Positions 442 through 19,533 of a DNA stretch of 64,000 nt are shown here, one piece after another. The stretch's first letter is position 1; each line of letters opens with the position of its first letter. Source of the DNA: SAR86 cluster bacterium. GTDB lineage: Bacteria > Pseudomonadota > Gammaproteobacteria > Magnimaribacterales > TMED112. Where the stretch lies: NCBI GenBank assembly GCA_003331635.1, contig QOPH01000002.1:68721-132720 (forward strand), given 5' to 3'. The position numbers were made by a program, and so were the translations under genes. The notes below the pieces were generated by a model. The model had not been told where the DNA came from. It ran no database searches and saw only the letters and a program-made list of their open reading frames with translations.

Positions 442-1075
442 GTTTGATACCGTAGCAAACTGGCAGAATGCTATTTGCAACCATCTTAGTTGTTTTAGCC
501 CAGATGCAAATCTAATAGTTCCTGGAGGTTCTACGCCTATTTTTTTATTCAAAAAATTTTTTAATGAAAAAACATTTAACCAATTGATTTTAAGCGATGA
601 AAGAATTACGAATGATAAGGAGAGAAGTAATTTTCTTACAATATCTTCTTTAACAAATTCTAATATTTTTAAATTATGTGATTTTCCAATTAGTAGCCAT
701 AAAAATATTTCATTACATAAAATCTCCGATGCTTTGAATAAGATCAAACATCCAGATATTGCTTTACTTGGATTAGGTGATGATGGTCACTATGCATCAA
801 TATTTCCCTCAACAGAAGTTATTGAAAATGATGAAAGTAACAATTTGAAAATAATTTCTGCAAAAATTGGTGATAGTTTTGAATATAGGATTACACTTTC
901 AGAAAAATATATTAAGAGAACTAAAGAGATTCTTTTTATTGCTAAAGGTAGGAATAAGTATGATCTAATAAATAAAATTGATAACAAATCTGAAGAGGTC
1001 ATTAATTTACCAATCGGCAAGCTTATAAATAGTTATAATGGGAAACTTAATATAATGTATTGTTTAAATGACTAG
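422..1075 (+). CDS. 6-phosphogluconolactonase / glucosamine-6-P isomerase family protein
   Basis: PGGSTP, SDER, SN, LLGLGDDGHYASIFP and RITLS motifs; ATG at 422 preferred over TTG at 413. Confidence 0.8.
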   Translation: MNQNIHKFDTVANWQNAICNHLSCFSPDANLIVPGGSTPIFLFKKFFNEKTFNQLILSDERITNDKERSNFLTISSLTNSNIFKLCDFPISSHKNISLHKISDALNKIKHPDIALLGLGDDGHYASIFPSTEVIENDESNNLKIISAKIGDSFEYRITLSEKYIKRTKEILFIAKGRNKYDLINKIDNKSEEVINLPIGKLINSYNGKLNIMYCLND

Positions 1076-1994
1076 ACTAAAAGTACATATAACTACCCTT
1101 CCATTTAATAAAGATAACTTGGCTTTTCTTGAAAAGTCATTTGATGTGACAATAAATCCTCTTGGAAGAAAAATTAAGAATGAAGAAGTTTATGAACAAG
1201 TTCACAAAGCAGATTATATTATTGCTGGAACTGAAAAATATAATCAAGAATTACTAAGCAAGTTAGTAAATTTAAAAGGCATATCAAGAGTTGGCATTGG
1301 GATAGATAATATCGATTTAAATATTGCAGCAAAAAATAATATAAAAATTTTTAATACTCCTGAAGAGCCAGCAAAAGGAGTTGCTGAACTTACACTAGCA
1401 TTTATATTAAATTTGTTGAGGGAGATCTCTTCGCATCAACTAAATTTAAATCAAGGCAATTGGGAGAAAACATTAGGTAAATCCCTGAATGAAGCAACTA
1501 TTTCATTAATTGGAGGTGGAAGAGTTGCAAAAAATGTTAGTAAATTTTTATTATCTGCAGGAGTCAAAAAAATAAAAGTTTTTGACATACTTGATTTAAG
1601 TGCTGACCCAGACTGGAAACATGAAAGTATATCTATATGTGAATTTGAAGAATGTCTTAGCAATTCTGATATTGTTTCCCTACATGTGCCTATGAATGAG
1701 AAAAATAAAAATATGATATCTAAAAAAGAACTCTTAGTTATGGGTAAAAACTCATATTTAATAAATGTTAGCAGAGGCGGATTGATTAACGAGGAAGATT
1801 TATATGAAGCTTTAAATTCCAATCTTATTAAAGGTGCAGCTTTAGACGTATTTGCAACTGAACCTTATGAGGGAAGGCTTTTAGACTGTAAAAATCTAAT
1901 TGCAACACCACATGTAGCATCGTCAACGGAATATGTTCGAGATCAAATGGAACGAAAGGCTTGCGAAAATTTAATTAATTTATTGGATGAGTGA
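1068..1994 (+). CDS. D-isomer-specific 2-hydroxyacid dehydrogenase (SerA-like, no ACT domain)
   Basis: RVGIGIDNID, VAELT, IGGGRVA, SLHVP, INVSRGGLINE, LDVFATEP and TPHVAS motifs. Confidence 0.85.
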   Translation: MTRLKVHITTLPFNKDNLAFLEKSFDVTINPLGRKIKNEEVYEQVHKADYIIAGTEKYNQELLSKLVNLKGISRVGIGIDNIDLNIAAKNNIKIFNTPEEPAKGVAELTLAFILNLLREISSHQLNLNQGNWEKTLGKSLNEATISLIGGGRVAKNVSKFLLSAGVKKIKVFDILDLSADPDWKHESISICEFEECLSNSDIVSLHVPMNEKNKNMISKKELLVMGKNSYLINVSRGGLINEEDLYEALNSNLIKGAALDVFATEPYEGRLLDCKNLIATPHVASSTEYVRDQMERKACENLINLLDE

Positions 1995-2619
1995 TATTAA
2001 AGAATTAATTTTTAGATCAAAAATCATCTTTTGGGACTTTGATGGAGTAATTAAAAAATCAAATCAAGTAAAAAATGATGCTTTCTTCAATTTATTTGAA
2101 GATATTACAAAAGAACAAAAAGAGTATATTCTCAATCATCATATTAATAATCAGGGGTTATCAAGATTTAAAAAAATTCCGTATTACATGGAATATTTAG
2201 GTATAGATACAAAAGAAAGTAATGTTCAAGCATATCTAAATAGATTTTCGGAATTAGTATTTGATGGTGTGATCAATTCAGATTGGGTTGAGGGGGTACT
2301 TGAAATATTGAGTAAGTTAGATAAATCGATATTGATTACTGCTACACCACAGGATGAAATTGAAAGAATAATTGAAAAAATTGAAATAGGTAAATTCTTC
2401 AAAAAAGTTTATGGCTCACCAAAAACAAAAATTGAGTGTGTTGAAGATTTTATCGAATCAAAAAATATAAATTTAAATAACTGTCTATTCATCGGTGATT
2501 CAAAATCAGATCTTTTTTGTGCTAATCACTTTGATATGAAGTTTCTTTTCATCAAAAATGAACACAATAAAAACATGATAGTTGATGAGAATATTCCTCA
2601 AGTAGAGAATTTTTTATAG
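1987..2619 (+). CDS. HAD-family phosphatase
   Basis: Motif I WDFDGVI, motif II TAT, K, motif IV IGDSKSD. Confidence 0.85.
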   Translation: MSDIKELIFRSKIIFWDFDGVIKKSNQVKNDAFFNLFEDITKEQKEYILNHHINNQGLSRFKKIPYYMEYLGIDTKESNVQAYLNRFSELVFDGVINSDWVEGVLEILSKLDKSILITATPQDEIERIIEKIEIGKFFKKVYGSPKTKIECVEDFIESKNINLNNCLFIGDSKSDLFCANHFDMKFLFIKNEHNKNMIVDENIPQVENFL

Positions 2620-2658
2620 CTTAGGTTTATTACAACTAGAGTATAATGTTCAGAATTT

Positions 2659-3408
2659 ATGAATAATACAATCTGCATAATACCTGCTAGGATGGGCTCT
2701 TCAAGATTCCCTGGGAAAGCTTTAGAAAAGATTTGTGGTATTGAAATGCTTCATCATTGCTTTATAAGAGCAAAGTTAGCGGAATGCTTTTCCGATATAT
2801 ATATAGCTACTCCAGATCAAGAAATTCATGATTTTAGTAAATCAATTGGCTGCAAATCTATAGATACCAAAGATACTCATACAAGATGTACCGAAAGAAT
2901 AGCTGAAGCAATTACAAAAATTGATGATTCTTTTGAAAATGTTGTTCTTTATCAAGGAGATGAGCCTTTATTTTCTCCTGAGATTTTAAAAATGCTTGCA
3001 AATTACATTTCGAATAATACTGACAGAACAGTTACTCTTATGGATGAAATTTCAGAAGAACAAGCCGAAGATTTAAATAATCCAAAAGTAGTAGTTGATC
3101 TAAATAATTATGCTGCATTCTTTTCTAGAGCTGCAATACCAGGATCTCTTAAAGGTCATAGTGAAAAGTTCTTTAAACATATAGGAGTTGTAGCTTTTAA
3201 AAAGTCTCTTCTGTATGAATATGCCAATATGGCTGAGGGTCCTTTAGAACGTGCAGAAAGTATCGATATGTTAAGGTTCATTGAACATAGTATTCCAATT
3301 AAAATGCTTTTATGTGAATCTAAAACAATAGGAGTTGATACGCCTAAAGATTTGGAAGATGTAGAAAAGCTTATGGTCAATGACAGTTATTATTTAGGGT
3401 ATAAATAA
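2659..3408 (+). CDS. kdsB: KdsB-like CMP-ulosonate (3-deoxy-manno-octulosonate) cytidylyltransferase
   Basis: IIPARMGSSRFPGKAL, QGDEP, HIGV, LERAESIDMLR and GVDTPKDL motifs; true substrate may not be Kdo. Confidence 0.8.
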   Translation: MNNTICIIPARMGSSRFPGKALEKICGIEMLHHCFIRAKLAECFSDIYIATPDQEIHDFSKSIGCKSIDTKDTHTRCTERIAEAITKIDDSFENVVLYQGDEPLFSPEILKMLANYISNNTDRTVTLMDEISEEQAEDLNNPKVVVDLNNYAAFFSRAAIPGSLKGHSEKFFKHIGVVAFKKSLLYEYANMAEGPLERAESIDMLRFIEHSIPIKMLLCESKTIGVDTPKDLEDVEKLMVNDSYYLGYK

Positions 3409-3409
3409 A

Positions 3410-4288
3410 ATGGCAAAAAAGGTATTAGTTGTAGGTGGCTCAGGTTTCTTAGGAAGCCATGTTGCAGATGAACTTACTGAGAAAGGTTATGAAGTAACTA
3501 TATTCGATCAGAAAAAATCAACCTGGATAAATGATAATCAGAAATTTATAGAAAGCGACTTACTTGACAGAGAACATGTAATTAAATGTCTAGAAGGATT
3601 TAACTTTGTCATTCATTTTGCAGGTATTGCAGATATTGGAGAATCAAAAGAAAAACCGCTTGAAACTATCGAAACAAATATTATTGGAACAGCAAATCTT
3701 CTTGAAGGATGTAGAAAAAATAAAATTGAAAGATTTATTTTTGCCTCATCTGTCTATGTTTTCAGCAAATATGGTTCCTTTTATGGAAAATCAAAACAGG
3801 CCTGTGAATTGCTGATTGAGGAATATCAAAATGAGTTTAGCCTCGACTATATTCATGTTAGATATGGCTCTTTATATGGTCCTAGAGCACAAGAATGGAA
3901 CGGTTTAAAAAAATACATATCAGAAATTATAAAAAATAAACAAATAGATTTTTCAGGAAATGGTGAGGAAAAGAGAGAATATATTCATGTTAAAGATGCT
4001 GCAATTATGACGGCAAGTCTTTTAGAGAGCGATGAAAAAAATATTGCTGTGAATATTACAGGCCATCAAGTTATAAGTACCTTAGATTTATTTAAATTAA
4101 TCTTTGAGGTGCTGCAACTTGAAGAGAAGATTAATTTATCAAAAGAATCAAATGTTGTTTCTCATTACAAAATTAGTCCATACAGTTTTCAACCTAAAGA
4201 ATCAAAGAAACTTGTTCCTAAAAAATTTATAGATATTGGCCAAGGAGTATTAGAAATAATTCATGAAATAGAGGATTCTAAGAATTAG
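3410..4288 (+). CDS. NAD-dependent nucleotide-sugar epimerase/dehydratase (extended SDR)
   Basis: GGSGFLG, FASS, YGKSK (YxxxK), YGP and REYIHVKD motifs. Confidence 0.88.
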   Translation: MAKKVLVVGGSGFLGSHVADELTEKGYEVTIFDQKKSTWINDNQKFIESDLLDREHVIKCLEGFNFVIHFAGIADIGESKEKPLETIETNIIGTANLLEGCRKNKIERFIFASSVYVFSKYGSFYGKSKQACELLIEEYQNEFSLDYIHVRYGSLYGPRAQEWNGLKKYISEIIKNKQIDFSGNGEEKREYIHVKDAAIMTASLLESDEKNIAVNITGHQVISTLDLFKLIFEVLQLEEKINLSKESNVVSHYKISPYSFQPKESKKLVPKKFIDIGQGVLEIIHEIEDSKN

Positions 4289-7152: not shown

Positions 7153-8894
7153 AAGAATATTTAATACGTATTTACTCGTTACTTTATGAAGATAAAAAAA
7201 GACTGCCATTACTGCTTATACTGTTTTTACTTACTTCATTTTTTGATGCGTTAAGCCTAGCGATTTTATTTCCATTTATACAAATACTTGTGAATTTTCA
7301 GGATTTTCAATCTAGTTATGGATGGTTTTTTGAGAGCATAAACCTTACTTCGAAATCGGAAATTATTACATTCTTAGGCATTACACTTGTTTCACTATTC
7401 ATTATTAAAGCTTTTGCTTCAATCTTGGTTAACTGGGCCATTTTAAGAATAACCTACAATAGACAAGCAAAGATTAAGACATCTCTACTACATAAATACC
7501 TTAATATGCATTACAGAAAGTATATAGAAGGAAATAGTGCCAGATACATTCAGATGATTCAAACAATGAGTATGCAATTCATTAAAGTTTTACAAGGATT
7601 TTTAAGGCTTCTTTCAGATGGTCTTATTTTTCTTTCGATAGTAATTGTTTTAGCTATTGTTGAAGGCCCACTTTTAATTTATGTCGGCGGCATGATGTTA
7701 GTTCTTCTTTTAATATATGACATTTTTTTCAAAAAACTATTAGATAGCCAAAGTAGAGCTATTACTGACTCTAGTGTGCAAGTAACAAAAACAGTAAATG
7801 AATCAATCCAAGGTCTTAAAGAAATTAAGATTCTTGGAAAACAGAACTTTTTTGAAGATATTCTTAAGGAAAATGTAGACATTTATGCAAAAAATAATAT
7901 TTATGCTGATCTAATAAGAACACAGCCAAAACACATTATTGAGTTGATATTTGTAATTGCTTTTACTTTGGCAGTTGTGTTCTTTACTCCATTACAAAAC
8001 GATTTTCAGAGCTTAATACCCACACTTGGAGTATTTCTCTTTGCAGCAATTAGGTTAATGCCTACCCTTAATCAAATGCTTGCTTCTGTAAATGTTCTTA
8101 GAATAGGCTACTATCCCACAACCCTTCTTTTTGAGGACATGACTACAAAACAAGACCTTGAAGAAGATGATTATAAAGCAAATATCTTAAAAGATGGATT
8201 CACCTCCATGCTGTTGAAAAATGTATTTTTCTCATATAAAAATGACAAAGAGCATCAATTAAATGGTATTTCATTACAGGTTGATAAAAATAAATCGATA
8301 GGTCTTTTTGGTCAATCTGGATCAGGAAAAACAACTCTTGTCGACGTGATGTTAGGTCTACTAGAGCCAAGTAAAGGCGAGATTCATTTAAATAACAAAA
8401 TTGTAAAAAATAATAAAGAATTTAGAAATTTAGTGGCATATATTCCACAAGATATTTTCATAATTAACGACTCAGTAAAAAACAATATAACTTTAACTGG
8501 GAGGGATGAAGTTATTGATGATGTTTTATTAGAAGATGTAGTATTGAGATCAAGACTTAAAGAGGTTGTCAATAATCTCCCTGAGGGAATTAATACAAAT
8601 ATTGGAGAAAGAGGAGTAAAGCTTTCTGGAGGTCAAAAACAAAGAATTGCTATAGCTCGAGCACTCTATAACAAAAGAGAAGTTCTTATTATGGATGAGG
8701 CAACTAGTGCTTTGGATAATAATACGGAAAAAGAAATAATTGATGAAATAAGAAAGCTAAAAGGTAAAGTTACTATGGTAGTAATAGCCCATAGGCTTAC
8801 AACACTACAGCACTGTGATGAAATTTATGAAATTAGTAATGGAAGAATTAGCGAAAAATATAACTATGAAGACATAAGTAAAAGTAAAAAATAA
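7149..8894 (+). CDS. ABC transporter permease/ATPase fusion (PglK/MsbA-like glycan flippase)
   Basis: N-terminal TM helices; Walker A GQSGSGKT, LSGGQKQR signature, MDEATSALD and IAHR. Confidence 0.88.
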   Translation: MKEYLIRIYSLLYEDKKRLPLLLILFLLTSFFDALSLAILFPFIQILVNFQDFQSSYGWFFESINLTSKSEIITFLGITLVSLFIIKAFASILVNWAILRITYNRQAKIKTSLLHKYLNMHYRKYIEGNSARYIQMIQTMSMQFIKVLQGFLRLLSDGLIFLSIVIVLAIVEGPLLIYVGGMMLVLLLIYDIFFKKLLDSQSRAITDSSVQVTKTVNESIQGLKEIKILGKQNFFEDILKENVDIYAKNNIYADLIRTQPKHIIELIFVIAFTLAVVFFTPLQNDFQSLIPTLGVFLFAAIRLMPTLNQMLASVNVLRIGYYPTTLLFEDMTTKQDLEEDDYKANILKDGFTSMLLKNVFFSYKNDKEHQLNGISLQVDKNKSIGLFGQSGSGKTTLVDVMLGLLEPSKGEIHLNNKIVKNNKEFRNLVAYIPQDIFIINDSVKNNITLTGRDEVIDDVLLEDVVLRSRLKEVVNNLPEGINTNIGERGVKLSGGQKQRIAIARALYNKREVLIMDEATSALDNNTEKEIIDEIRKLKGKVTMVVIAHRLTTLQHCDEIYEISNGRISEKYNYEDISKSKK

Positions 8895-9763
8895 TGAGAG
8901 CCCTCTGTTACATTCAAAAAAAATACTATAAATGGAAGATTGATCTAATAGCAGATGATTTATTTAAAGGCGAAAAGAAAAATTGTGAAATTGAAATAGT
9001 TTATCCAGAAAATTTTTCATTAAATGCTCTTACCAAAAAGAAGAAATATGATTTTCTAGTTGGCTGCAATGTTGATGATTTTAAATTCCAGCTACTATAT
9101 AAATGTTTAAATTTCGACAAATTTATTACCTTTGATGAGGGGCAAAGAAGTATAAATGAAAATGATAAATATTATTCCAAGAGTTTTTCTTTTGAAAATC
9201 AAAAAAAGTTTTATTTTTTGAATAAAATTTGCGGCTTTCCATTACCATTTGGAAAGCTCTTAGAGAAAAGTGATAAACACTATTCGTTTTTTGATCCAAA
9301 AATTTTTAATCATCCTATTAAATCAACTACATTTCTTAAGAAGAAAAAAATTACGAAAAAGATTACAAAGATATTCTTTGGAGTAAGTAGCAATTGGGTT
9401 TTTAGTCATAGAGAAGATCTTTTGAATAAACCAAAAATCATAGAGAAGAAAATAAATGAAGCAGCTTTGAAAATAAATAAACTATGTCCTGATCTATATA
9501 TCCCCCACCCAAGAGAAGATGAGAGAATACTAGAATTACTTAATGAGAATATTACCATTGTAAATTGTCCAAATGGAAGTGAGGATTTTGTTAATAAATT
9601 AGCTTTAAGTAATGAAATTGAGGTATTTACAGAAAAATCAGGGGTAGTTTTTGATCTTAACAAAAAAATAAAAATTTCATTTATTGATTTATTTAATAGG
9701 TTTAGTAAATCCGAATACGACAAGTTTAAAAACCAATATAAAGAATTTAAGAAAAGCAATTAA
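8894..9763 (+). CDS. Putative CMP-sugar (sialyl/ulosonyl) transferase, GT52-like
   Basis: TFDEG (D/E-D/E-G motif) and YIPHPRE (HP motif), characteristic of bacterial sialyltransferases. Confidence 0.6.
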   Translation: MRALCYIQKKYYKWKIDLIADDLFKGEKKNCEIEIVYPENFSLNALTKKKKYDFLVGCNVDDFKFQLLYKCLNFDKFITFDEGQRSINENDKYYSKSFSFENQKKFYFLNKICGFPLPFGKLLEKSDKHYSFFDPKIFNHPIKSTTFLKKKKITKKITKIFFGVSSNWVFSHREDLLNKPKIIEKKINEAALKINKLCPDLYIPHPREDERILELLNENITIVNCPNGSEDFVNKLALSNEIEVFTEKSGVVFDLNKKIKISFIDLFNRFSKSEYDKFKNQYKEFKKSN

Positions 9764-9769
9764 ATCAAA

Positions 9770-10648
9770 ATGTTAGGTATAAATAGTAAAAAAAATATTC
9801 AATTTCCCCTACAAAAACAAGGCACACCAAGTGTAGTAGTTTTAGAGGACTTTTTTGATGAAGAATTTATTAGAGAAGCAAATAATGATTTTGAAGAGTT
9901 TATAAAAAAATCATCTGAGGTCGATTTTCTTAGTTTTGGAGAAACACGAAAAAATTTATCTTCAAGAGGGTCTAGGTATGAGGAAATTGTTAAATCGTCA
10001 AAATCTATCAGAAAAATTTGTGAATATATTAAGTCTGAGGAATTCTTTAAAAAATGTATTAAAAATTCGACTGAAGCATTCAATAAAAAAGGATTAAAAA
10101 TTAAAATTCCAAAATTCAATCAAAATTCCTATGACTCCTTAAGGTTTGCTAAAAAATTCTCTATCTTATGGGCGTTAAATAAGCTTCGTTTTGTTTTGTT
10201 TCAAATTCCCTATTTTGGAGACTTATTTGAGAAATTAAGTTTATCTTTGTTTGGAAACGTAGCTCCTACTATTGATGTTGCACAGTCTGAAATGGGTTAC
10301 GAAGTTGGAATGCATACTGATAGTAGATTTAAACTCATGGCTGGGATTATTTATTTAAATACAATAAAAGATGATAGTGATGGAGAAACAGAGTTTTGGA
10401 GCTCCGAAGGTCTTTCAAACCTTGAAAATCAAAAAAGATATCCAGATAAAGAGGATATAGTTAATTCCAAACTTTTGATGAGTGTTAAGCCTAAGGCCGG
10501 AAGAACTGTTTTATTCATAAACTCAAACGATTCTTATCATAGTGTTAAGAAATTTAAAGGAGATAAAAGGAACATCATATATTTTTCCTTTTCTGTACCT
10601 ATTTTAGATAATATCTGGGAAACAGACTTTAAAGTTAAATCTCTTTAA
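9770..10648 (+). CDS. 2-oxoglutarate/Fe(II)-dependent oxygenase
   Basis: HTD...IIYLN...G.TEFW...YHSV...KR, giving the HxD...H facial triad plus the 2OG-binding Arg. Confidence 0.8.
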   Translation: MLGINSKKNIQFPLQKQGTPSVVVLEDFFDEEFIREANNDFEEFIKKSSEVDFLSFGETRKNLSSRGSRYEEIVKSSKSIRKICEYIKSEEFFKKCIKNSTEAFNKKGLKIKIPKFNQNSYDSLRFAKKFSILWALNKLRFVLFQIPYFGDLFEKLSLSLFGNVAPTIDVAQSEMGYEVGMHTDSRFKLMAGIIYLNTIKDDSDGETEFWSSEGLSNLENQKRYPDKEDIVNSKLLMSVKPKAGRTVLFINSNDSYHSVKKFKGDKRNIIYFSFSVPILDNIWETDFKVKSL

Positions 10649-11471
10649 TTGCTTCAAGCATGTGTTGATGAACAATATCCTCTTTTCCTACCAGATTGTT
10701 TGCTAAACAAAAGCCTATGACTGCTTGCATAAGATTCATTCGTGAGCCGTCAATACAATTTAGAGAAAGAGAGCTTGCATCTCTTAATAGTTTTGAAGGA
10801 CTGTTTATATAATTAACATCGAATAACAGAGCTTCTTTGTTAATTGAACTTAATTGACTAGCTGAAAGAATAGAATCTTCGTTATTTCCATCTTTACCTA
10901 TAGAGGTGCAATTTATAAGAACATCGTAGTTTTCTATATCAAGATTAAGTGAACCATAATCTTTAAAATTCATCCCAAAATCTGTAAATAAACTAGAAAT
11001 TTCCTGATTTCTTCCATAAACATCTACATCAAAATTTTTATTTTGATTAGAAAGTTGATAGCACAATGATTTTGAAACTCCTCCAGTTCCAAGAATGCAT
11101 ACCCTTTGAATATCTAAATCTTTTTTTACGGAACTAATTGATTCGAGTAAAGCTAAGGTATCAGTATTAGCTGCTGTAAACTTGCCTTCAGAATTAAAGA
11201 AACAATTTTTTGGTTCAATAAAACTACCGCTATCATCTGCAAAATAATTTGCGACAACTTCTTTAAGTGGTGCTGCTACCGCTCCACCAATAAAATCAGT
11301 TTTTGTTATTTCTGAATCTAAGAATTCTATTGCATCACTTTCATGCTCTATATCTACAGCTGTCATTTCTGCATCAATATTGAGTGCATTAAAAGCAGCA
11401 TTCCATAAAATAGGAGAACGAGCACCCTTTGAAACATCTTTCCCTATTATTGCCGCCCTCTTCATCTTCAA
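10635..11471 (-). CDS. Shikimate dehydrogenase (AroE)-like oxidoreductase, divergent
   Basis: SPILWN, PLK, NTD, GTGGV, NCTSIG, DVNY and DG..M...Q motifs. Confidence 0.8.
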   Translation of the reverse strand: MKMKRAAIIGKDVSKGARSPILWNAAFNALNIDAEMTAVDIEHESDAIEFLDSEITKTDFIGGAVAAPLKEVVANYFADDSGSFIEPKNCFFNSEGKFTAANTDTLALLESISSVKKDLDIQRVCILGTGGVSKSLCYQLSNQNKNFDVDVYGRNQEISSLFTDFGMNFKDYGSLNLDIENYDVLINCTSIGKDGNNEDSILSASQLSSINKEALLFDVNYINSPSKLLRDASSLSLNCIDGSRMNLMQAVIGFCLANNLVGKEDIVHQHMLEAIKEI

Positions 11472-12343
11472 ATTACCTCTTTAGAAACTGCTTTTGCAAC
11501 GTTATCCATTTTTTTCATAAGAGAATTAAACGTATCGAAGTTGATTGGTTGCAAAGGATCGACTGCAGAATTTTCTGGATCTGGATGAACTTCTAACATT
11601 ATTGAATCAGCTCCAGATGCAATTGATGCAAGTGTCATTGGTTCAACCCAATCACGCCAGAAGGTTGCATGGGATGGGTCTGTAGCAACTGGAATATTTG
11701 TTATTTCTTGTGTTGCTGGAACAACTTGTAAATCCAATGAAAATCTAGAAGTTGCTCTATGAGTATGTGGAATTGACATTCCTCTCTCACATAAAATTAA
11801 TTTTGTACAGCCTTCCTTAAGAGCGTACTCAGCTGCTCCCAACCAATCTCTTAATGAGGCACCATAATGTCGTTTAAGCATTATAGGGAAACCTGTCTTT
11901 GCTGATTCTACTATTAGAGGATAATTTTGCATGTTTCTAGATCCAATCTGCAGGATATCCGTAGCATCGCATACTGCATCTAAATGTTTTTCTTCCATAA
12001 CTTCAGTTATGACAGGTATTTCAGCCTCCTCTCTGGCTGATTTTAACCACTTCAGACCATCTAAGCCTGTTTCTGTATATTTCTCATTTCTATAAGGAAA
12101 ACTTAAAGGTTTAAAAGCTCCACCTCTTAGAAAAGTAGCACCTGAAGCTTTTACTGACTTCGCAGTTTCTATAATGAGTTCTTCTGACTCAACCATGTTT
12201 GGACCTGCCATAACAGGAATTTTTTTACCATTAAAAACAACACCTGCTATTTCGAAAGGTTCTTTTGAAAAATTGGCTACTAAAGGTATTTTCGACTTTA
12301 TATCCTCTTCAGTTATATCTTTTCCGGGAAACTTGTTATACAT
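11468..12343 (-). CDS. Type I-beta DAHP synthase / KDO8P synthase family PEP-aldolase, divergent active site
   Basis: AGPN, LRGGAFKP, QIGSRNMQN, LCERG, DPSH and EVHPDP motifs; no regulatory domain. Confidence 0.85.
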   Translation of the reverse strand: MYNKFPGKDITEEDIKSKIPLVANFSKEPFEIAGVVFNGKKIPVMAGPNMVESEELIIETAKSVKASGATFLRGGAFKPLSFPYRNEKYTETGLDGLKWLKSAREEAEIPVITEVMEEKHLDAVCDATDILQIGSRNMQNYPLIVESAKTGFPIMLKRHYGASLRDWLGAAEYALKEGCTKLILCERGMSIPHTHRATSRFSLDLQVVPATQEITNIPVATDPSHATFWRDWVEPMTLASIASGADSIMLEVHPDPENSAVDPLQPINFDTFNSLMKKMDNVAKAVSKEVI

Positions 12344-13397
12344 CTTGCCCTAGTTTAGCCGATCTAACATCATCAGAAAAAGAAATTATTGAATTATTCT
12401 CCACAGATGAATATAAAGCATGAATATATTTTATTGAATCTAAACTGGATTCTGCACTTGTAGGAAAAATAATTTTTCCGGAATCATTAAAATTTTTACT
12501 AATTTCTTTAAGCATATGATGATGACCGTTACCATAACCATTTTTTACAGTTTCTGAGTTTTCTTTAAGTTCATTTGATAGCTCCACTCCATCAAGCTTA
12601 ACTCTTGTAAGCTCATTTAAAGCGATGCCTCCAACTGAAATTTGATATTTATCAGTTACCACTTCTAATGATGCTGAAAAATCTTCAGGTCTCACAGCGG
12701 TCGTCGCTTCAATTGTAAAAAATCCACCCTTTAAAAGTGTTCCAGACGCAACAAAAGTATCCTCAGCCTCAAGTTTATTATTGATATTTCCAGAGAAACC
12801 AGATAAAAATTGTGGAGGGCCAAATAAATAAAATAGAGCATCAATATGGTGTATTGCTTGTTGGCTAATTACTCCACCATCTGTTTTCCATCTCCCGTGC
12901 CATTCATCATTATAATAATCTTGAAACCTACACCACTGCAATTTAACACTTGCTGAAATGATTTTTCCAAAATCATTTTGTAAAAAGAGATTTTCAATAT
13001 ATTTAATTGGTTTATTCAATCTGTTTTGAAATACACCTCCGTAAAGAACATTTTTTTCTTTAGCAAGTGCCATATTTGCAACAACATCCTCTACGTTAAG
13101 ACCTATAGGTTTTTCACACAGAACATTAACTCCATTTTGTAAAAGTACCTTTGAGTTTTCTGCATGACTACCTGATGGAGTAGTAATTATGGCAATATCA
13201 ACATCATCTTTGCTTACCTCATCTATTGAAGCAAAGGTCTTACCTGAATTCTCTTTTTCCCATTTGCTCCTTGATTCTGCATACTGGTCCACACCTACAG
13301 AAAAAATATATTCATCAGATAAATTTTCTTTAATGACTTCAGCATAATGTTGAGCTGCTCGCCCTAAACCTATGAAAGCTAGTTTTAATTTACTCAA
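12336..13397 (-). CDS. Gfo/Idh/MocA NAD(P) oxidoreductase (WlbA/WbpB-like sugar dehydrogenase)
   Basis: IGLG, TPSGSH, CEKP, FQNR and W.R...YY...W.G.W..DGG....QAIHHID motifs. Confidence 0.82.
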   Translation of the reverse strand: MSKLKLAFIGLGRAAQHYAEVIKENLSDEYIFSVGVDQYAESRSKWEKENSGKTFASIDEVSKDDVDIAIITTPSGSHAENSKVLLQNGVNVLCEKPIGLNVEDVVANMALAKEKNVLYGGVFQNRLNKPIKYIENLFLQNDFGKIISASVKLQWCRFQDYYNDEWHGRWKTDGGVISQQAIHHIDALFYLFGPPQFLSGFSGNINNKLEAEDTFVASGTLLKGGFFTIEATTAVRPEDFSASLEVVTDKYQISVGGIALNELTRVKLDGVELSNELKENSETVKNGYGNGHHHMLKEISKNFNDSGKIIFPTSAESSLDSIKYIHALYSSVENNSIISFSDDVRSAKLGQDV

Positions 13398-14715
13398 ATT
13401 TCACCTCAAATTTACTCATTTCTTCTTCAGTGCTTATTTCAATCATATCAGCTTGATTAAGTTGGGGAATAAGATTTACCCTTTTTTTTAAAAAATTCCC
13501 ATTCCTTAAATCTGATGCATTAAGTGTGCACCCAAAACCAAATGGACAAATCATCACTGATGATTCCTCCAATTCTCTTGGCAATAGCTGATTATTTATT
13601 GCTATTTCGCTTTCCTCTCCTCTTGTAAAACATATTCTTTTTTCTTCATGGCTATAAAGTGTTGGTAGAAATGCTGATTCGTAAAAACTATCTACCAAAT
13701 TTTTAAAACTACTCTGATCTCTAAAAGGGTAGTTAACAGAAGAAAGAGTAATGGAATTAGGTATATATTTTTGATTTTCAAAATCTAAAAGACAATCCTT
13801 TAATACATCATTTAAGGAGGTGTCATAGTCTTTTGTGCCTCTATCAAAAATATCGAGTCCAGATTCTTCTGCTTGCTTCAAAGCCTTTTTATCGATTCCA
13901 CAAAATACTATGTCTTCAAAAACCGAACTTTTTTTTGCATCACTTATAACTTTTCGCAAAAGACCAAGACGAAAGTCGTCATATTTTTCTCTATCAAAAA
14001 TAATAAGTATGTCTTTTGTTTTTCCTTTATATTCACAAAGATTTTCACTCTTAAATTCGTCTGCTTCCATTATTTGAACAATTTTTTTAGCTCTTTTTTT
14101 ATCTGCTTCCTGATGTATGCCATGATGATGAAAAACTACTGCATCCGGCTCATATACAATCTTGAGTTTATTCTTTATGACTTCTTTTCCCCAAATTCTG
14201 TCCTCAATATTAGTCACTTCATCATCAAAACGAAATTTCTCCCAGGTTTTTCTTGTGAATGCTGAGTTGGCATTGTGAAAAAAAGAATCCTTTTCCTGAA
14301 CTCTCTTATCATTTCCAAATGTCAAAAATAAATCCCTTTTATCGAGATAATGTGATGAACTTGTGGGTACTTGCTTTCCATAAACACCCGCAATTTTTTC
14401 ATCTTCTAAATCATTTACTAAATTTTTAAGCCAATCTTTCTCTTTGGGAATGCAGTGCGCAGACAAACATATCAGATAATCTCCTGAAGAGTTTTCAATT
14501 CCATAATTAATTGCGTTTCCTGGTTTAAATTCTTTGAGGGTAACTACTTTTACATTCCATTCTTTTGCTTTTTCAACAGTCTTGTCTGTGGAACAGTTAT
14601 CTACAATAATTACCTCAAAATTTTTGTAATCCTGTTTGAAAATTGCATTTAAACAAATAGAAATCCATTTTTCTTCATTCTTCGTTCTAATTATTATGGA
14701 AGCTTTTTTCATCAT
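13390..14715 (-). CDS. GT2 glycosyltransferase fused to a degenerate NeuA-like cytidylyltransferase domain
   Basis: N-terminal SIIIRTKNEE, VDNCSTD, FHNANSA, IED; C-terminal AKKSSVFEDIV...NYPFRD...IEIST resembles the NeuA fold. Confidence 0.7.
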   Translation of the reverse strand: MMKKASIIIRTKNEEKWISICLNAIFKQDYKNFEVIIVDNCSTDKTVEKAKEWNVKVVTLKEFKPGNAINYGIENSSGDYLICLSAHCIPKEKDWLKNLVNDLEDEKIAGVYGKQVPTSSSHYLDKRDLFLTFGNDKRVQEKDSFFHNANSAFTRKTWEKFRFDDEVTNIEDRIWGKEVIKNKLKIVYEPDAVVFHHHGIHQEADKKRAKKIVQIMEADEFKSENLCEYKGKTKDILIIFDREKYDDFRLGLLRKVISDAKKSSVFEDIVFCGIDKKALKQAEESGLDIFDRGTKDYDTSLNDVLKDCLLDFENQKYIPNSITLSSVNYPFRDQSSFKNLVDSFYESAFLPTLYSHEEKRICFTRGEESEIAINNQLLPRELEESSVMICPFGFGCTLNASDLRNGNFLKKRVNLIPQLNQADMIEISTEEEMSKFEVKFE

Positions 14716-15446
14716 ATTTTCTCTGGTATCGGAGGTAAATTTTCAAAATCATTCTCTTTGATCCATTCGGCTGCCTTATTAGCTAAAAATAAATCAAAAT
14801 CGTTATGTATGTCTAATGCTGAAAAGCTTCTATTATCTGTTATCAGCTTAACATTGTCACCAATTCTACGCCCATTCCTCCAAAGGTTTGAACGAGATGC
14901 ACAAGCTAACCCAGTATCTTCCCTGTATGATTTTCTTCTAACTTGTCTACTCTCATAAATACTCATCCATTCTTTAAGACGTGTTGGATTATTATCAATA
15001 ACCTCCCAAAAGTTTTTGTGAGTTTCATTAGCGACGAATACACTCTCCAATTCATTATTTTCTTCAAGTGCATCTATAGCATGATCTATCCATCCATCTC
15101 TTCTGAATAAATCAGTACATGTTAAAAAAACGCATATATCGAAGCTTTGTTTAAATATTTTTTCTGACTCCAATAAAGAATACTTTAATGTCTCCTCAGT
15201 GGTTGTTAAATCACCTGAAACATCACTAGTACGCAAAAAGGGAACTTCTGCACCATATTTTAATGCAACCTCTCTTATGTCTTTATCGTCTGTAGAAACA
15301 ACTATTTTCGAAAGTTTTTTAGATCTTTTAGCTGCCTCGATTGGCCATGCAATTAAAGGATGACCCAAGAATTCTCTTAAATTCTTTTTCTCAAGCCCCT
15401 TAGAGCCTCCCCTTGCAGGGATTATTGCTATACTATTACTCTGCAT
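14712..15446 (-). CDS. Acylneuraminate (CMP-ulosonate) cytidylyltransferase, NeuA-like
   Basis: IIPARGGSKGLEKKN, VSTDD, EVPFLR and LDIH..FD motifs. Confidence 0.88.
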   Translation of the reverse strand: MQSNSIAIIPARGGSKGLEKKNLREFLGHPLIAWPIEAAKRSKKLSKIVVSTDDKDIREVALKYGAEVPFLRTSDVSGDLTTTEETLKYSLLESEKIFKQSFDICVFLTCTDLFRRDGWIDHAIDALEENNELESVFVANETHKNFWEVIDNNPTRLKEWMSIYESRQVRRKSYREDTGLACASRSNLWRNGRRIGDNVKLITDNRSFSALDIHNDFDLFLANKAAEWIKENDFENLPPIPEKI

Positions 15447-15462
15447 TAAAGGTAGATTTTAC

Positions 15463-16629
15463 ATGATAAGTATAGTAATTCCATCTAGAAATGATGACAT
15501 TGAAGTTTTTCAAAAAACTATTAACGCAATAAAAAAACAAACTGTATTGCCAAAAGAAATTATTATTGTTGATTCAAGTACTGATAATTCAATAAAAAAC
15601 TTTTTACAAAAGCAAAAATTAAAGCTGATTAATCTTATTTACAAAAAAATTGATGGGTCATTTGCAGGAAAAAGTACAAATATTGGAATGTCTCTTGCAA
15701 CACAAAAGTTTATTGGTTTGCTTGATACCAAAACAATTCCAAATGATACATGGATAGAAAAATACATAAAACAATTGGAAAGAGATAACTCAGATTTGAT
15801 TTTTGGAAATACAAAATTCTTCTCTAAAAATAGATTTCAAAAAATACTAAGAATTCTTTCATATGGTGATGCATCACATGAAACAGTACCTGGAACTATA
15901 TTTAAACGCAGTAAATTCGGCAAAAAAATGTTTTTCATTGAAAATGTCAGATCATCATATGATATTGAGTGGAGGGAGAGACAAAAAACTCTTTTGAAAA
16001 CTTCTTTGGGTAATGAGATTGAAATAGAGTATGGAGAATTTCCAAATTCATTCTTGGATGCTGCAAAAAAATACTTTATTTATAGTTTTTATACTGCAAT
16101 TGTAAATGTTCAAAAGGATGCGAAAGATCTATATTTATCAATTTTTATAATTTTATCCGCATTAGTCATACCAAGATGGAATTTTTTTCTTGAAGGCTGG
16201 GATGAGAATCCGCTCTATATTGCAGATGTAACAAAAAAATACTTTTTATCACTATTGGTAATTTTTTTGAGTTTTTTAATTGCAACAAGATTTTTTCCTA
16301 AGCAAGTAGAAAATAGGCTTCCATTTATTACTCTTAAATACACAGTTTTTCTTTTTATCTTTCTTTCTGTTTTTAATTGGAATGCAGTAGTAGCTGACTG
16401 GGTAGAGGATGCTGTTTTTTACATTCCACATATCACGAAAATTTTTGTGGTTTTAGTTTTGATTTCCTCTGTATTGGTTAGGGGACTTTTTAAACCAGTA
16501 AGCAACAAAGTTAAATTAAATTATCTTCTTCCCTTTAGGTGGTTATTTATTGGCACTATTGGGCTAATACTCGATATTGTTAAAGCTCCTGGTTACATAA
16601 TAGGTTCCTTGATTTCAAAATTTAGATAA
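15463..16629 (+). CDS. GT2 glycosyltransferase with C-terminal transmembrane helices
   Basis: SIVIPSRND, IIIVDSSTD, LLD; hydrophobic C-terminal half. Confidence 0.75.
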   Translation: MISIVIPSRNDDIEVFQKTINAIKKQTVLPKEIIIVDSSTDNSIKNFLQKQKLKLINLIYKKIDGSFAGKSTNIGMSLATQKFIGLLDTKTIPNDTWIEKYIKQLERDNSDLIFGNTKFFSKNRFQKILRILSYGDASHETVPGTIFKRSKFGKKMFFIENVRSSYDIEWRERQKTLLKTSLGNEIEIEYGEFPNSFLDAAKKYFIYSFYTAIVNVQKDAKDLYLSIFIILSALVIPRWNFFLEGWDENPLYIADVTKKYFLSLLVIFLSFLIATRFFPKQVENRLPFITLKYTVFLFIFLSVFNWNAVVADWVEDAVFYIPHITKIFVVLVLISSVLVRGLFKPVSNKVKLNYLLPFRWLFIGTIGLILDIVKAPGYIIGSLISKFR

Positions 16630-17344
16630 AACTTTTTATATCAAGAAATTCTGATTCAATGTTGTAAGATTTTGAAATTCTTTTTGGCATTTTTAATGCT
16701 TTAATTTTCAAGCTCTTTGAAAATGAATTCATAAATCTTAAGAAATTAAGTGGGCTCCCATTTAAGTCATTTTTATACTCTTGTAATTGTTGGATTATGG
16801 AATCTTTCACAATAAAAATACTCTGATCTGCTAGCCCCTCGTCCCAATTTATTTCTGCTCTATTATCAATTGAGAGATGAATATCATTAACAAACTCAGA
16901 ATTTTCTTTGAGCACATATTTTACATATGGATTTTTATCAAATATTAAGGGTACAAAAATATCAGCATCCTCAGAAATATTTAAATGCTTTTCAAATGCA
17001 GATATTGAATCAATAATAAAAGTATCGCCCCAACACACAAATATTAGACTACCATTTGCTTTAAAGCTACTTAACCCATCTAAAACAGCTTGTCCATCTC
17101 CTGAACCTGACTCACTTTCAATGAATTTAATCTTTGATAAAAAATGATCCTCAATATTTTTGTTGAACAATTCTTTTGAAGATTTATCTTTAGGTATTGG
17201 TATTATTATTGTTTCAAAATACTTATTAACTTCCTCTAAAAGGTAATTTATCGCTGCTCTACCATTAATTTTTAGTAGTTGCTTTGGTACTGATGATTTC
17301 ATTCTTGTTGATTTTCCAGCACATGGAATAATAATTTTTCTCAA
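16622..17344 (-). CDS. Nucleotidyltransferase (GlmU-N/IspD-like NTP transferase)
   Basis: IIIPCAGKSTRMKS..PKQL, GSGDG and WGD motifs; TTG at 17344 gives a TTGA overlap with the upstream stop (ORF track start is 17359). Confidence 0.75.
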   Translation of the reverse strand: MRKIIIPCAGKSTRMKSSVPKQLLKINGRAAINYLLEEVNKYFETIIIPIPKDKSSKELFNKNIEDHFLSKIKFIESESGSGDGQAVLDGLSSFKANGSLIFVCWGDTFIIDSISAFEKHLNISEDADIFVPLIFDKNPYVKYVLKENSEFVNDIHLSIDNRAEINWDEGLADQSIFIVKDSIIQQLQEYKNDLNGSPLNFLRFMNSFSKSLKIKALKMPKRISKSYNIESEFLDIKSFI

Positions 17345-19533
17345 GAATCTGATCTCCATTTCGAGCTATTTGCTCCCATTATTAATGATGAAATTTTTAA
17401 ATTATCATGTTTGCCTGAATCAATAGATTCAAAATCTTCAGCGAGTATTTCTTTAAGATCTAATTGATATAATTCACTCATATTCAACCTTATGTACCTA
17501 GAATCTTGTTTTGATGGAGAATTTGAGATAATTACATCAAAAAGTTCAGGTACCTGAAAATTAAGTTTTCCCTTTTGATTTAAATAAAACCTTGCCTGTT
17601 TAATTTGATCTGCTGCTGTAAATTCTGGTGTTTCATTGTCATGATCGATATTTGTTATAAAAAACTTTTGTGCTGAAGATTTTGAAATCTCTTCAGTTAA
17701 TCCTTTTGTCCAATAAGTTGGATATAAACTGCTGTATTGAGTTCCAGGACCATATATTATTATGTCAGCTTTTCGAACTGCTGAAGCAGTATCTTGGCTT
17801 AGGTCAGGGAATGGTGATGATATATTTTCGAGAAATTGTTTTTTCTTAATAAGCCCTGTTAAAGATTCAAATTGTTTCTCCTCTTCTTCTGATAATGGAT
17901 ATGTTTTATAAAAAATTTCAAAAATTGGTGTTTTTCCCTCATAACCTACAATTTCTGACTCGTCTTTCAGAAGCTTTCCATCCTCTGTAAGGCCAAAAAG
18001 ATAACCAGCTTCTGATGAATTAAAGAAAACCTCATTTGGCAAATTGAAAGCATCTCTCACCATAAGTTCAACTTTCTTTATATCCCCATATTTATGCTCT
18101 AGAGAACCATAAATAATATTAGATAAGGCAAAATCTTGAAATTCTAATGTTTTATTCTGCTTTTCAGAAATTTTTTTAAAATGTGAGAGCGAATCACTAA
18201 TTATCTCTTGCATCTGATAATTCATTTTTTGGTAATAAGGGAAAAATTTTGATTTATAATTTTGATTATCAATAAGCTTAGAAATATCATTTTTAAAATC
18301 AAGAAAGTCACATGACGTACGGCTTTTAAAAAAATCGAGCCCCTCTCCTTCAGGATAATAAAATTCATATTGAGTCTCTTGGACTTTTCTTAAATCAGAG
18401 GGTCCTAAAATTTTGTAATCAAAAAAAGCTCTTATTGCGCCAGTTGAGAGGCCATCGTCATAAGCATTAATAATATTTGTTAAATCTAAATTAACGTCAT
18501 TTAGTTTTGAAAACTCTCTAAGTCCATCACATAGGTTTATCGAACCCCTTCCTCCTGAAAATACAACTACATTCAAACCATTTTGATTAATATCATAAAA
18601 TCCTTTTTTTCCTTGAATGCCATGAAGATATCCTTTGAAAAAATAACGAAGATTTATAAAAAAATTGTGATAGTTAGAATGAAAGAATAAAAAAAATAAG
18701 CCTGCAGTAAACTTTAAATTATGAGCAAGCAAATATAAAAACCACCCAACCGAGAATGATTTGAAGTTCTTTTTAAGAAATAATAATGATCCCCTTGTAG
18801 AGTAATATAACCATTGTTTATTTGCATATTTATTTTTGCTACCTGTTTTAGTATCGTGATAACCAATAGCTTTCGGAGTAAAGCGATGAATATTTTTTGC
18901 CTTTATAGATCTGTACATCAGATCGTGATCGTCGTAATAGAGAAAGTAATCTTTATCAAACCAACCAATTTCTTTTTCTATTTTTCTGGAAATTAACACC
19001 ATACATCCATTTAGGGCATCAAGCGTTCTAACTTCAGAGAATTTTTCGTGATTAGTCTCATTAACACCAATACCCTTTGCTATTGCATAGTAAGGTTTTA
19101 AGTCGGCACCAATAGCATGTAATGTATTCTTATTTTGAAAATAAAATACTTTTCCACCTACAAAAGTATGTTTTTCTGATTTTTCTGCTTCATTAACTAA
19201 CTCAGCAACACAATCTTTATCAAGTACTACATCTTCATCCATTTTTAGCATGTATTTCCAATCCTCATGAATAACCTTTAAGGCTTCAATATATGAACCT
19301 GATGAACCAGAATTTAATTTTAAATCTAGAAGTTTTATTTTTTTGTTATCTATTTCCCTAGAAAATATTTTTTTAATTTCAGATACTGTTCCATCATTAG
19401 AGTTATTGTCTACAACAATTACCTCAAATGAATCCTCTGGATAATTTTGCGAAAGAATAGATTGAATACTTTCATTGATTATGTACTTTCTGTTATAACT
19501 TGCTACAACGATGCTAACGAAAGGTTTTTTCAT
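17341..19533 (-). CDS. Fusion of GT2 glycosyltransferase and CofD/YvcK (UPF0052)-like domain
   Basis: GT2: SIVVASYNR, VDNNSND, DED, FLYYDDHD; C-half: VVFSGGRGS, YDDGLSTG, PSDLRK and ADIIIYGPGTQYSSLYP. Confidence 0.8.
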   Translation of the reverse strand: MKKPFVSIVVASYNRKYIINESIQSILSQNYPEDSFEVIVVDNNSNDGTVSEIKKIFSREIDNKKIKLLDLKLNSGSSGSYIEALKVIHEDWKYMLKMDEDVVLDKDCVAELVNEAEKSEKHTFVGGKVFYFQNKNTLHAIGADLKPYYAIAKGIGVNETNHEKFSEVRTLDALNGCMVLISRKIEKEIGWFDKDYFLYYDDHDLMYRSIKAKNIHRFTPKAIGYHDTKTGSKNKYANKQWLYYSTRGSLLFLKKNFKSFSVGWFLYLLAHNLKFTAGLFFLFFHSNYHNFFINLRYFFKGYLHGIQGKKGFYDINQNGLNVVVFSGGRGSINLCDGLREFSKLNDVNLDLTNIINAYDDGLSTGAIRAFFDYKILGPSDLRKVQETQYEFYYPEGEGLDFFKSRTSCDFLDFKNDISKLIDNQNYKSKFFPYYQKMNYQMQEIISDSLSHFKKISEKQNKTLEFQDFALSNIIYGSLEHKYGDIKKVELMVRDAFNLPNEVFFNSSEAGYLFGLTEDGKLLKDESEIVGYEGKTPIFEIFYKTYPLSEEEEKQFESLTGLIKKKQFLENISSPFPDLSQDTASAVRKADIIIYGPGTQYSSLYPTYWTKGLTEEISKSSAQKFFITNIDHDNETPEFTAADQIKQARFYLNQKGKLNFQVPELFDVIISNSPSKQDSRYIRLNMSELYQLDLKEILAEDFESIDSGKHDNLKISSLIMGANSSKWRSDS

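Follow-up and report, generated by a model that had tools for sequence, protein, structure and literature searches.

Shikimate-type enzymes in a marine glycan-island cassette: a candidate pathway to a CMP-activated ulosonic acid

Why should relatives of two shikimate-pathway enzymes lie among the glycosyltransferases of a bacterial glycan island? The question is raised by a 64,000-nucleotide stretch (the window) of the genome of a SAR86 cluster bacterium (1.0 Mb on seven contigs, 91% complete, ~30% G+C). Here, five minus-strand genes encode a cytidylyltransferase (CMPt), a fusion protein with a glycosyltransferase family 2 (GT2) domain (GT2x), a Gfo/Idh/MocA oxidoreductase, a relative of DAHP synthase (3-deoxy-7-phosphoheptulonate synthase) and an AroE-like dehydrogenase. 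The large glycan island around them also encodes transferases of families GT1, GT2, GT4 and GT52, as well as Wzz, AsnB, an ABC exporter and other proteins. A first-pass annotation had proposed a new route to a cytidine monophosphate (CMP)-activated ulosonic sugar built from repurposed shikimate enzymes. The module, the paralogy of its members and their co-occurrence stand, while the heptulosonate that it suggested as a possible product is doubtful and a NeuB/NeuC cluster lies left of the window. We see an even chance that the cassette is self-contained and horizontally mobile and makes a CMP-activated 3-deoxy-2-ulosonic acid that is passed to a surface glycan.

The five open reading frames (ORFs; Table 1) lie exactly where the first-pass annotation had placed them, overlap by 4, 8, 8 and 4 nt in order when the longest ORFs are used, and contain by Pfam the domains that had been assigned to them. 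None of the five proteins reaches the curated score of any NCBIfam model. On the basis of an ESM Atlas start-site note, the true start of the AroE-like protein may be the ATG two codons downstream. In four RNA libraries, contigs span the whole cassette and cross every gene boundary (among them 10897-11728, 11709-12503, 12574-13743, 14306-15447 and 12068-13791); they show neither strand nor a single transcript and may derive from DNA carry-over, and they provide weak evidence of transcription. Some bins of the stretch compared had no coverage in some RNA runs. RNA-library contigs of runs X17 and X19 have joints or loose ends at ~9195-9219, 12373-12390 and 15374-15391, and the cassette neighborhood may be differently arranged or partly replaced in related populations.

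Table 1 Cassette features and the nearby exporter, in window positions
Feature	Position	Strand	Basis or remark
Cytidylyltransferase (CMPt), 244 aa, NeuA/PseF-like	14712..15446	-	PF02348
Fusion GT2x, 441 aa	13390..14715	-	
GT2 (GT-A) domain of GT2x, residues ~1-217	14065..14715	-	PF00535
C-terminal cytidylyltransferase-like domain of GT2x, residues ~225-441	13390..14043	-	hhalign
Gfo/Idh/MocA oxidoreductase, 353 aa, nucleotide-sugar dehydrogenase type	12336..13397	-	PF01408, PF02894, PF22725
DAHP-synthase-like phosphoenolpyruvate (PEP) aldolase, 291 aa	11468..12343	-	PF00793; clade of its own within type I-beta
AroE-like NAD(P)H dehydrogenase, 278 aa	10635..11471	-	PF08501 + PF01488
ABC exporter, 581 aa	7149..8894	+	PF00005 + PF00664; outside core cassette

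By overall similarity, the synthase is a DAHP synthase. It matches PF00793 (DAHP_synth_1; 4.2e-50, 170.6 bits against a cut-off of 25.5), and its solved relatives are type I-beta DAHP synthases (1vs1, 1zco and 1rzm; E-values 6e-58 to 6e-50). DAHP synthase models give 296 bits, those of Kdo 8-phosphate synthase (KDO8PS) at most 89 bits against cut-offs of at least 242. The protein nevertheless stays below the equivalog cut-offs, just under that of TIGR01361 (258.1 versus 267.75 bits) and below that of NF006421 (295.6 versus 335). Its relatives in the databases number in the thousands; each of the best 120 clusters shows 56% identity or more, and those with names belong to Neomarinimicrobiota, Pelagibacter and other marine groups.

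An alignment of 44 cassette-clade synthases with 35 housekeeping type I-beta enzymes revealed consistent changes around the active site. In DAHP synthases, the Arg and Ser/Thr of the KPR[ST] motif hold the phosphate of erythrose 4-phosphate, and KDO8PS has KANRS in its place. All 35 housekeeping rows read KPR[ST], whereas all 44 clade rows read KPL[ST]F (KPLSF in the window). The clade also carries two three-residue insertions absent from the housekeeping enzymes, giving PYRxxKY and ERGVSVPHTHR in every covering row, the first of which introduces the new conserved residues Arg85 and Lys88. Conserved aromatics were gained at F82, Y84, F228, W229 and W232. The housekeeping motif DPSHxTGxR is replaced by DPSHATFWRPWV, and LSDGxQS, around an Asp, by AVDPLQP. 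At the metal-site position, Cys is found in 35 of 35 housekeeping rows as opposed to six deep-branching clade rows; the other 38 have Asn (AGPNMVES in the window), a mark of metal-independent KDO8PS. The His, Glu and Asp ligand positions and the PEP-side positions are kept. The genome's own KdsA-like protein (C1:287837) likewise has Asn here (GGVNVIES), together with the KANRS motif that the cassette synthase lacks.

These changes suggest that the clade is neofunctionalised. Given the altered KPR[ST] and metal Cys, we infer that its aldose differs from erythrose 4-phosphate and is not bound by the usual phosphate site, and that most members probably work without metal. According to PMC12531865, DAHP synthases have an absolute metal requirement and metal-independent KDO8PS exist. 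Loss of the KPR[ST] Arg and the following Ser places a plain heptulosonate or 3-deoxy-D-lyxo-heptulosaric acid (Dha) product from erythrose 4-phosphate, and likewise DAH, low in our ranking, as doubtful; Arg85 and Lys88 could equally form a displaced phosphate site.

Could these simply be an extra aroF and aroE serving aromatic amino acid synthesis that came to lie in the island by chance? Their Pfam families do belong to the shikimate pathway, and the score just under TIGR01361 agrees with such redundancy. Yet every clade member has altered active-site motifs, the linkage to cytidylyltransferase, Gfo and GT2 described below is constant and has no counterpart at 35 housekeeping loci, and the cassette occurs in five of 30 genomes of its genus, all of which leaves this explanation close to refuted. 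The genome moreover holds a full housekeeping pathway. The aroG at 56093-57145, noted as normal in the first-pass annotation, is a genuine AroFGH-type enzyme (TIGR00034, 519.7 bits versus a cut-off of 173.2), and aroB (C2:160029), aroQ (C6:8051) and a second, better-scoring AroE (C4:66982) lie elsewhere. The cassette copies are thus additional, diverged paralogues beside a complete set, as had been supposed. The window had also been described as free of NeuB, KdsA, AroB and AroD. For the families covered by our whole-genome search (NeuB, DAHP_synth_1/KdsA, DHQ_synthase/AroB and type II dehydroquinase/AroQ), matches do lie outside the window except for the cassette synthase and aroG; AroD was not searched for.

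To compare gene neighborhoods, we used a locus scan with one genome per species, in which 80 loci were listed from at least 574 confirmed stretches. Among the loci listed, 45 have a synthase 48-72% identical to the window copy and 35 one of 39-48% identity (Clostridia, Bacteroidales and similar). As these groups were split by identity rank and not by partner genes, contrasting their partners is not circular. By tblastn, the 45 cassette-clade loci, many on short contigs, contain the cytidylyltransferase, the Gfo and the AroE-like gene in 37 cases each, the two-domain GT2 in 26 and a plain GT2 match in six; all five genes are present at 21 loci and the four biosynthetic ones at 30. When only the 29 loci with at least 6 kb to the left and 3 kb to the right of the synthase are counted, the numbers are 18 and 23. 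In contrast, the 35 housekeeping I-beta loci have no cytidylyltransferase, Gfo or GT2 of either class, and AroE at two. The usual order, CMPt-GT2x-Gfo-synthase-AroE-like, is that of the window and recurs across phyla, in support of the first-pass reading. All-against-all clustering of 1793 ORFs from the loci yielded no sixth gene of equal constancy. Next in frequency came an epimerase family, the ABC exporter and some short ORFs in antisense; the protein cluster of the window's exporter recurs in 12 of 45 other cassette-clade loci, and this gene is possibly associated with the cassette.

In a maximum-likelihood tree of 80 rows (quick search, LG+G4; truncated L047 and L071 dropped; the genome's own KdsA as outgroup), a single branch with SH-aLRT 100 unites the 44 cassette synthases. 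A subclade of six unites Acidobacteriota, Gemmatimonadota, Nitrospirota and Planctomycetota, and one of 38 interleaves Pelagibacteraceae, Prochlorococcus, Actinomycetota, SAR324 and various Pseudomonadota. Such mixing of phyla within one synthase branch is horizontal spread, and the five genes form a conserved module that has moved between lineages. Many loci show compact five-gene inserts (for example, L012 and L019). In the genus of the window, the five carriers are 98-100% identical; of the other 25 species genomes, 24 show only KdsA at 24-28% identity and one has no match. Searches of plasmid and phage collections by tblastn returned no clade member, the matches being housekeeping-like and all below 45% identity. 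Cultured carriers comprise Denitromonas iodatirespirans IR-12, Prochlorococcus marinus MIT 9302 and Candidatus Pelagibacter HTCC9565 and HIMB1483. Near-identical DNA (0.99 of sampled words) was found in 14 marine DNA runs from at least ten studies, some of which may be the source, and six metatranscriptome runs contained 0.54-0.83 of the words.

The cassette also varies. A Pelagibacteraceae sub-variant (L034:8116-8946 and L040:8119-8961), with synthases ~50-54% identical, has a plain GT2 of 276-280 aa in place of the two-domain fusion, between the cytidylyltransferase and the Gfo. Accessory genes at other loci encode a carbamoyltransferase, radical S-adenosylmethionine (SAM)/SPASM proteins, a flavin mononucleotide-dependent 2-hydroxyacid dehydrogenase, a LarA-like protein, an enolase-superfamily (MR/MLE) member, methyltransferases, PMT_2 and a class I/II aminotransferase, the last located between the synthase and the AroE-like gene. 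Such additions would suit a sugar acid with a keto or hydroxy group that is decorated in different ways from lineage to lineage.

Which reaction would follow the aldol step? The cytidylyltransferase belongs to CTP_transf_3 (PF02348; 1.4e-25, 90.9 bits) and lies nearer to PseF/NeuA than to KdsB, albeit below the equivalogs (PseF 119.7 versus 205.7 bits; KdsB 38.5 versus 155.2, with all KdsB models at or below 50). Its best solved relative is 9ftb, labeled 'NeuA' (3.9e-24). The motifs IIPARGGSKGLxxKN, VPFLRP, SRQ and REDTG are intact and invariant across 14 cassette copies. Three CTP_transf_3 genes lie within the glycan island, and a KdsB-like one on C1 brings the total for the genome to four.

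The transferase candidate GT2x begins with a Glycos_transf_2 domain (PF00535; residues 6-156, 1.2e-30, 107.1 bits) that is highly conserved (FFHNANSA, IEDRxW and HxHG invariant in a 23-copy alignment) and lacks the DXD motif. Its place is taken by S-[AG]-H-C, of which S85, H87 and C88 are invariant in the same 23 copies; in an alignment with TarS, 'DSDD' falls on 'SAH'. GT2x may transfer a CMP-sugar; the missing DXD fits a monophosphate (CMP) donor. An AlphaFold2 model (mean predicted local distance difference test score (pLDDT) 88, predicted TM-score 0.86) retrieved only GT-A transferases in a fold search, two-domain polymerases first, and gave no functional lead. That the C-terminal half is a pseudo-NeuA domain, as the first-pass annotation had read it, is borne out by profile-profile comparison with the neighboring cytidylyltransferase (hhalign probability 99.9, E 5e-35, 223 columns). 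The nucleotide loop GGSKGLxxKN is deleted (an eight-column gap), most catalytic motifs are gone and invariant columns are restricted to R68, P106, R108 and few others, the window copy being the most degenerate. This half thus looks like a 'dead' synthetase domain that has lost its CTP-binding loop. Complex prediction of the dead domain with the cytidylyltransferase scored 0.34 (best control 0.00), runs agreeing on at least 81% of contacts with partner pLDDT of at least 76. The docking mark is reached by 58 of 80 solved complexes and two of 110 mismatched pairs; seven of the 80 and both passing mismatched pairs do so at or below 0.60, and with solved NeuA dimers on record, the predictor may have passed by having memorised them. 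The prediction lends weak support to docking of the dead domain on the active synthetase.

The two oxidoreductases point to redox chemistry on a sugar. Over its full length, the Gfo is closest among solved proteins to 3q2i (1.6e-39) and 3q2k (2e-35), the WlbA UDP-GlcNAcA 3-dehydrogenases; no NCBIfam equivalog applies to it and no model score comes near its cut-off. The AroE-like protein scores 104.9 bits with the best AroE model, where the cut-off is 252 (200 to 252 across AroE models). Invariant are K70, N89, N102-T103-D104, GxGG, D218, Y221 and Q249 (K70 and D104 across 30 copies). In the substrate loop, PSKGARSP replaces HSxSP, with a three-residue 'GAR' insertion whose Arg is near-invariant, and the Asn of the NVT motif is lost. 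Most copies carry an Arg after the second strand, presumably a mark of NADP(H) use. Solved relatives include the keto-sugar reductase 7cok, a 5-ketofructose reductase, and an ESM Atlas query returned only generic shikimate-dehydrogenase clusters. WlbA is a nucleotide-sugar dehydrogenase of the Gfo/Idh/MocA family according to PMC13656337. The same paper describes ElaABC, in which structures, docking and mutants led to the proposal that a CMP-transferase, a Gfo/Idh/MocA enzyme and a short-chain dehydrogenase/reductase (SDR) oxidise C8 of CMP-Leg5,7Ac2, reduce it again and so make 8-epi-legionaminic acid; the trio is described there as a discrete, horizontally acquired module. The idea of the first-pass annotation that a Gfo and a reductase could epimerise a CMP-sugar therefore has a published precedent.

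From the gene set, its conservation and linkage, the motif changes and the domain homologies, we infer the following chemistry, order of steps and acceptor. First, PEP would be condensed with an aldose by the DAHP-synthase-like enzyme, probably without the phosphate grip by which erythrose 4-phosphate is bound and, in most copies, probably without the usual metal site, and the NeuA-like enzyme would convert the product to its CMP-sugar; the constant linkage of synthase and cytidylyltransferase fits the Kdo/nonulosonate logic of a PEP aldolase followed by a CTP_transf_3 enzyme. The WlbA/ElaA-like Gfo would then oxidise one hydroxyl of the (CMP-)sugar to a ketone, which the AroE-like enzyme would reduce with NAD(P)H from the other face, giving the epimer at that carbon; at variant loci, the aminotransferase may use the ketone instead. 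GT2x would finally transfer the sugar, its dead domain binding the CMP-sugar or docking on the active synthetase. Our guess for the epimerised carbon is C4. An ulosonate pyranose is an oxa-analogue of quinate, in which the carbon addressed by quinate/shikimate dehydrogenases maps to C4, and a '3-dehydrogenase' of an aldose nucleotide would act at C4.

The order could be reversed: the Gfo and the AroE-like enzyme would first epimerise a common sugar phosphate, the synthase would condense the resulting rare aldose and CMP would be added last. The Gfo-type NtdC, a 3-dehydrogenase, acts on glucose 6-phosphate. The synthase and AroE-like genes are the most constant neighbors, the conserved Arg of the PSKGARSP loop could hold a phosphate and Arg85 and Lys88 could form a displaced phosphate site for a longer substrate. 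The closest solved relatives of the Gfo, however, are nucleotide-sugar dehydrogenases, the module contains no phosphatase, and the residues kept by the AroE-like protein are presumably those that bind a ring carboxylate. ElaABC, moreover, is proposed in PMC13656337 to act on the CMP-sugar. We rate the reversed order as quite improbable.

Kept shikimate/quinate-type catalytic residues in the AroE-like protein, and the aminotransferase and radical SAM enzyme added at some loci, would also be in keeping with a carbocyclic, aminoshikimate-like product. Here, a DAHP-like compound would be cyclised after transient oxidation by the Gfo and reduced by the AroE-like enzyme to a quinate-like acid. The 3-amino-5-hydroxybenzoic acid (aminoshikimate) pathway does unite a Gfo (RifL), a DAHP synthase (RifH) and an AroE (RifI). 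Such chemistry needs the phosphate of erythrose 4-phosphate as a leaving group, though, and its binding site is lost; the annotated clusters of the 45 loci include no dehydroquinate-synthase-like or dehydratase gene; and the constant linkage with a cytidylyltransferase and a glycosyltransferase in glycan islands points to a sugar donor. This leaves the carbocyclic route only a slim chance.

The main rival to the ulosonic-acid pathway outlined above comes from the DNA to the left of the window. A legionaminic-acid-type cluster (C2:53900-63200, ~5-15 kb away; about 4962-14239 on L092, the stretch C2:49000-68720 of the same genome) encodes LegB, LegC, NeuD, NeuB, NeuC and a CBS-nucleotidyltransferase, with neuB at C2:57753, 11 kb from the left edge of the window. 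Next come genes for a 304-aa Gfo, a 234-aa cytidylyltransferase and an SDR resembling PtmA, an Ela-like trio matching the ElaA/ElaB/ElaC arrangement. The cassette could accordingly be a nonulosonic-acid branch. Its synthase would condense PEP with an unphosphorylated N-acetylated (6-deoxy)hexose of the legionaminic, pseudaminic or neuraminic acid pathway. The product, a nine-carbon acid of variant stereochemistry such as a 4-epimer, would be activated, epimerised and transferred by the cassette.

The evidence on this branch is divided. In its favor, NeuB is strong in 17 of 21 other cassette genomes checked (four of five and 13 of 16), frequently within one and the same island, the Arg/Ser that hold a phosphate are gone from the synthase while conserved aromatics have appeared, and the cytidylyltransferase scores higher as PseF/NeuA than as KdsB. 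Loci L013 and L037 retain just two cassette genes, the synthase and the AroE-like one, directly after an ABC exporter and a NeuB-containing cluster. NeuB is common anyway, however (nine of 14 control genomes), and three further cassette genomes show only weak PF03102 matches. Denitromonas carries all five genes, flanked by unrelated genes and GT4/tetratricopeptide repeat genes, with no NeuB match in its 5.2 Mb and no sugar-precursor genes within 10 kb, and the many compact five-gene inserts likewise speak against dependence on such a cluster. The first-pass annotation had allowed that its cytidylyltransferase might activate an acid made by a NeuB left of the window. A NeuB/NeuC cluster is indeed there, but it has its own cytidylyltransferase, Gfo and SDR, and the five genes co-occur elsewhere. 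Because of this separate enzyme and the low identity of the cassette Gfo (28%) and cytidylyltransferase (33%) to their counterparts in the cluster, the cassette would not simply serve the legionaminic acid pathway. Denitromonas, with the cassette and no NeuB match, further indicates that the cluster does not explain the cassette. We consider the nonulosonic-acid branch unlikely.

Several points weigh against the pathway that we favor. No enzyme activity or sugar is known for any cassette member, and what the Arg/Ser of KPR[ST] and the change from Cys to Asn do is taken from the literature on DAHP synthases and KDO8PS. A phosphorylated aldose would need a further phosphatase, since none is in the module and the KdsC model TIGR01670 finds no match in the 91%-complete genome, although KdsA and two KdsB-type genes are present. 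On chemical grounds, a CMP-4-keto-3-deoxy sugar would be prone to CMP elimination. The frequency of NeuB among cassette genomes leaves room for a nonulosonic-acid link, and L013 and L037, where the cassette cytidylyltransferase, Gfo and GT2 fusion are not within reach of the other two genes, fit a different order of steps or another role. GT2 enzymes are not known to use CMP-sugars, and transfer is the weakest link of the scheme.

In the full-text literature, with subscription journals mostly outside coverage, we found no description of this gene set. A bolder version of our proposal, which we put forward tentatively and regard as rather unlikely to hold in full, is that the synthase clade is a fourth kind of alpha-carboxyketose synthase, mostly metal-independent and acting on an aldose bound elsewhere than at the usual phosphate site, that together with an AroE-derived keto-sugar reductase makes an undescribed class of ulosonic acids. 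GT2x would then be the first DXD-less GT2-derived CMP-sugar transferase, its dead synthetase domain receiving the labile donor, and the sugar would be common but unseen in the ocean. If true, it would be a common surface determinant, as the cassette lies in variable glycan islands of SAR11, Prochlorococcus and other abundant plankton. For glycobiology, the cassette would be a further origin of acidic sugars in CMP-activated form, next to Kdo and the nonulosonic acids, and possibly of a new transferase type. For enzymology, it offers an AroE relative recruited to sugar chemistry and a well-defined DAHP-synthase clade without the erythrose 4-phosphate site and mostly without the metal Cys, against the metal requirement stated in PMC12531865. 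Ecologically, a cross-phylum module of patchy occurrence within a genus is what one would expect of surface structures on which phages and grazers exert selection.

The island around the cassette holds further unusual genes. Convergent with it on the plus strand, a GT52 (sialyltransferase-family) gene and a 2-oxoglutarate-Fe(II) oxygenase gene occupy 8894-10648; the ends of the oxygenase and AroE-like genes overlap by 14 nt, and neither the GT52 nor the oxygenase gene is part of the conserved module at other loci. A second small sugar-acid set (413-4288, plus strand) encodes a 6-phosphogluconolactonase-like protein, a phosphoglycerate/D-2-hydroxyacid dehydrogenase, a haloacid dehalogenase-type (HAD) phosphatase, a KdsB-subfamily cytidylyltransferase (NF003952, 236.5 bits versus a cut-off of 193) and an SDR epimerase. 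At 16622-19533 (minus strand), a 730-aa fusion of GT2 with CofD (2-phospho-L-lactate transferase) adjoins a 245-aa IspD/MobA-like nucleotidyltransferase, a hint that the glycan may be decorated through a phosphodiester, with phospho-lactate or something similar. An ORF for a UDP-glucose/GDP-mannose dehydrogenase, 289 aa long (27029-27898, minus strand), matches the N-terminal and central domains but not the C-terminal domain and may be truncated.

How does the cassette compare with known systems? Its synthase shares fold and closest sequence family with type I-beta DAHP synthase (AroF); unlike that enzyme, the cassette clade never occurs in an aro context and has changed motifs and metal Cys. 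The AroE-like protein has both Pfam domains, the Lys/Asp pair, NTD, Gln and GxGG in common with the family of AroE, YdiB, HI0607 SdhL and 7cok, but scores far below AroE cut-offs, carries the 'GAR' insertion and is linked to glycan genes. As in the Kdo pathway, a PEP aldolase would make a 3-deoxy-ulosonate and a CTP_transf_3 enzyme its CMP-sugar, and the synthase has Asn as in KdsA; KANRS, the phosphatase KdsC and the isomerase KdsD are missing, however, a redox pair is added and the transferase is GT2-like rather than GT30. WlbA and WbpB, as UDP-GlcNAcA 3-dehydrogenases, oxidise a ring hydroxyl of a nucleotide sugar; the cassette Gfo differs in having no aminotransferase partner in the core cassette and in a nucleotide that is presumably CMP and not UDP. 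ElaABC, as described in PMC13656337, resembles the cassette in combining a Gfo/Idh/MocA oxidase (ElaA) and a CMP-transferase (ElaB) with a reductase that depends on nicotinamide (ElaC). The reductase is an SDR there and AroE-like here, and where ElaABC works on a NeuB-derived sugar, the cassette brings its own DAHP-synthase-like enzyme and a GT2 fusion.

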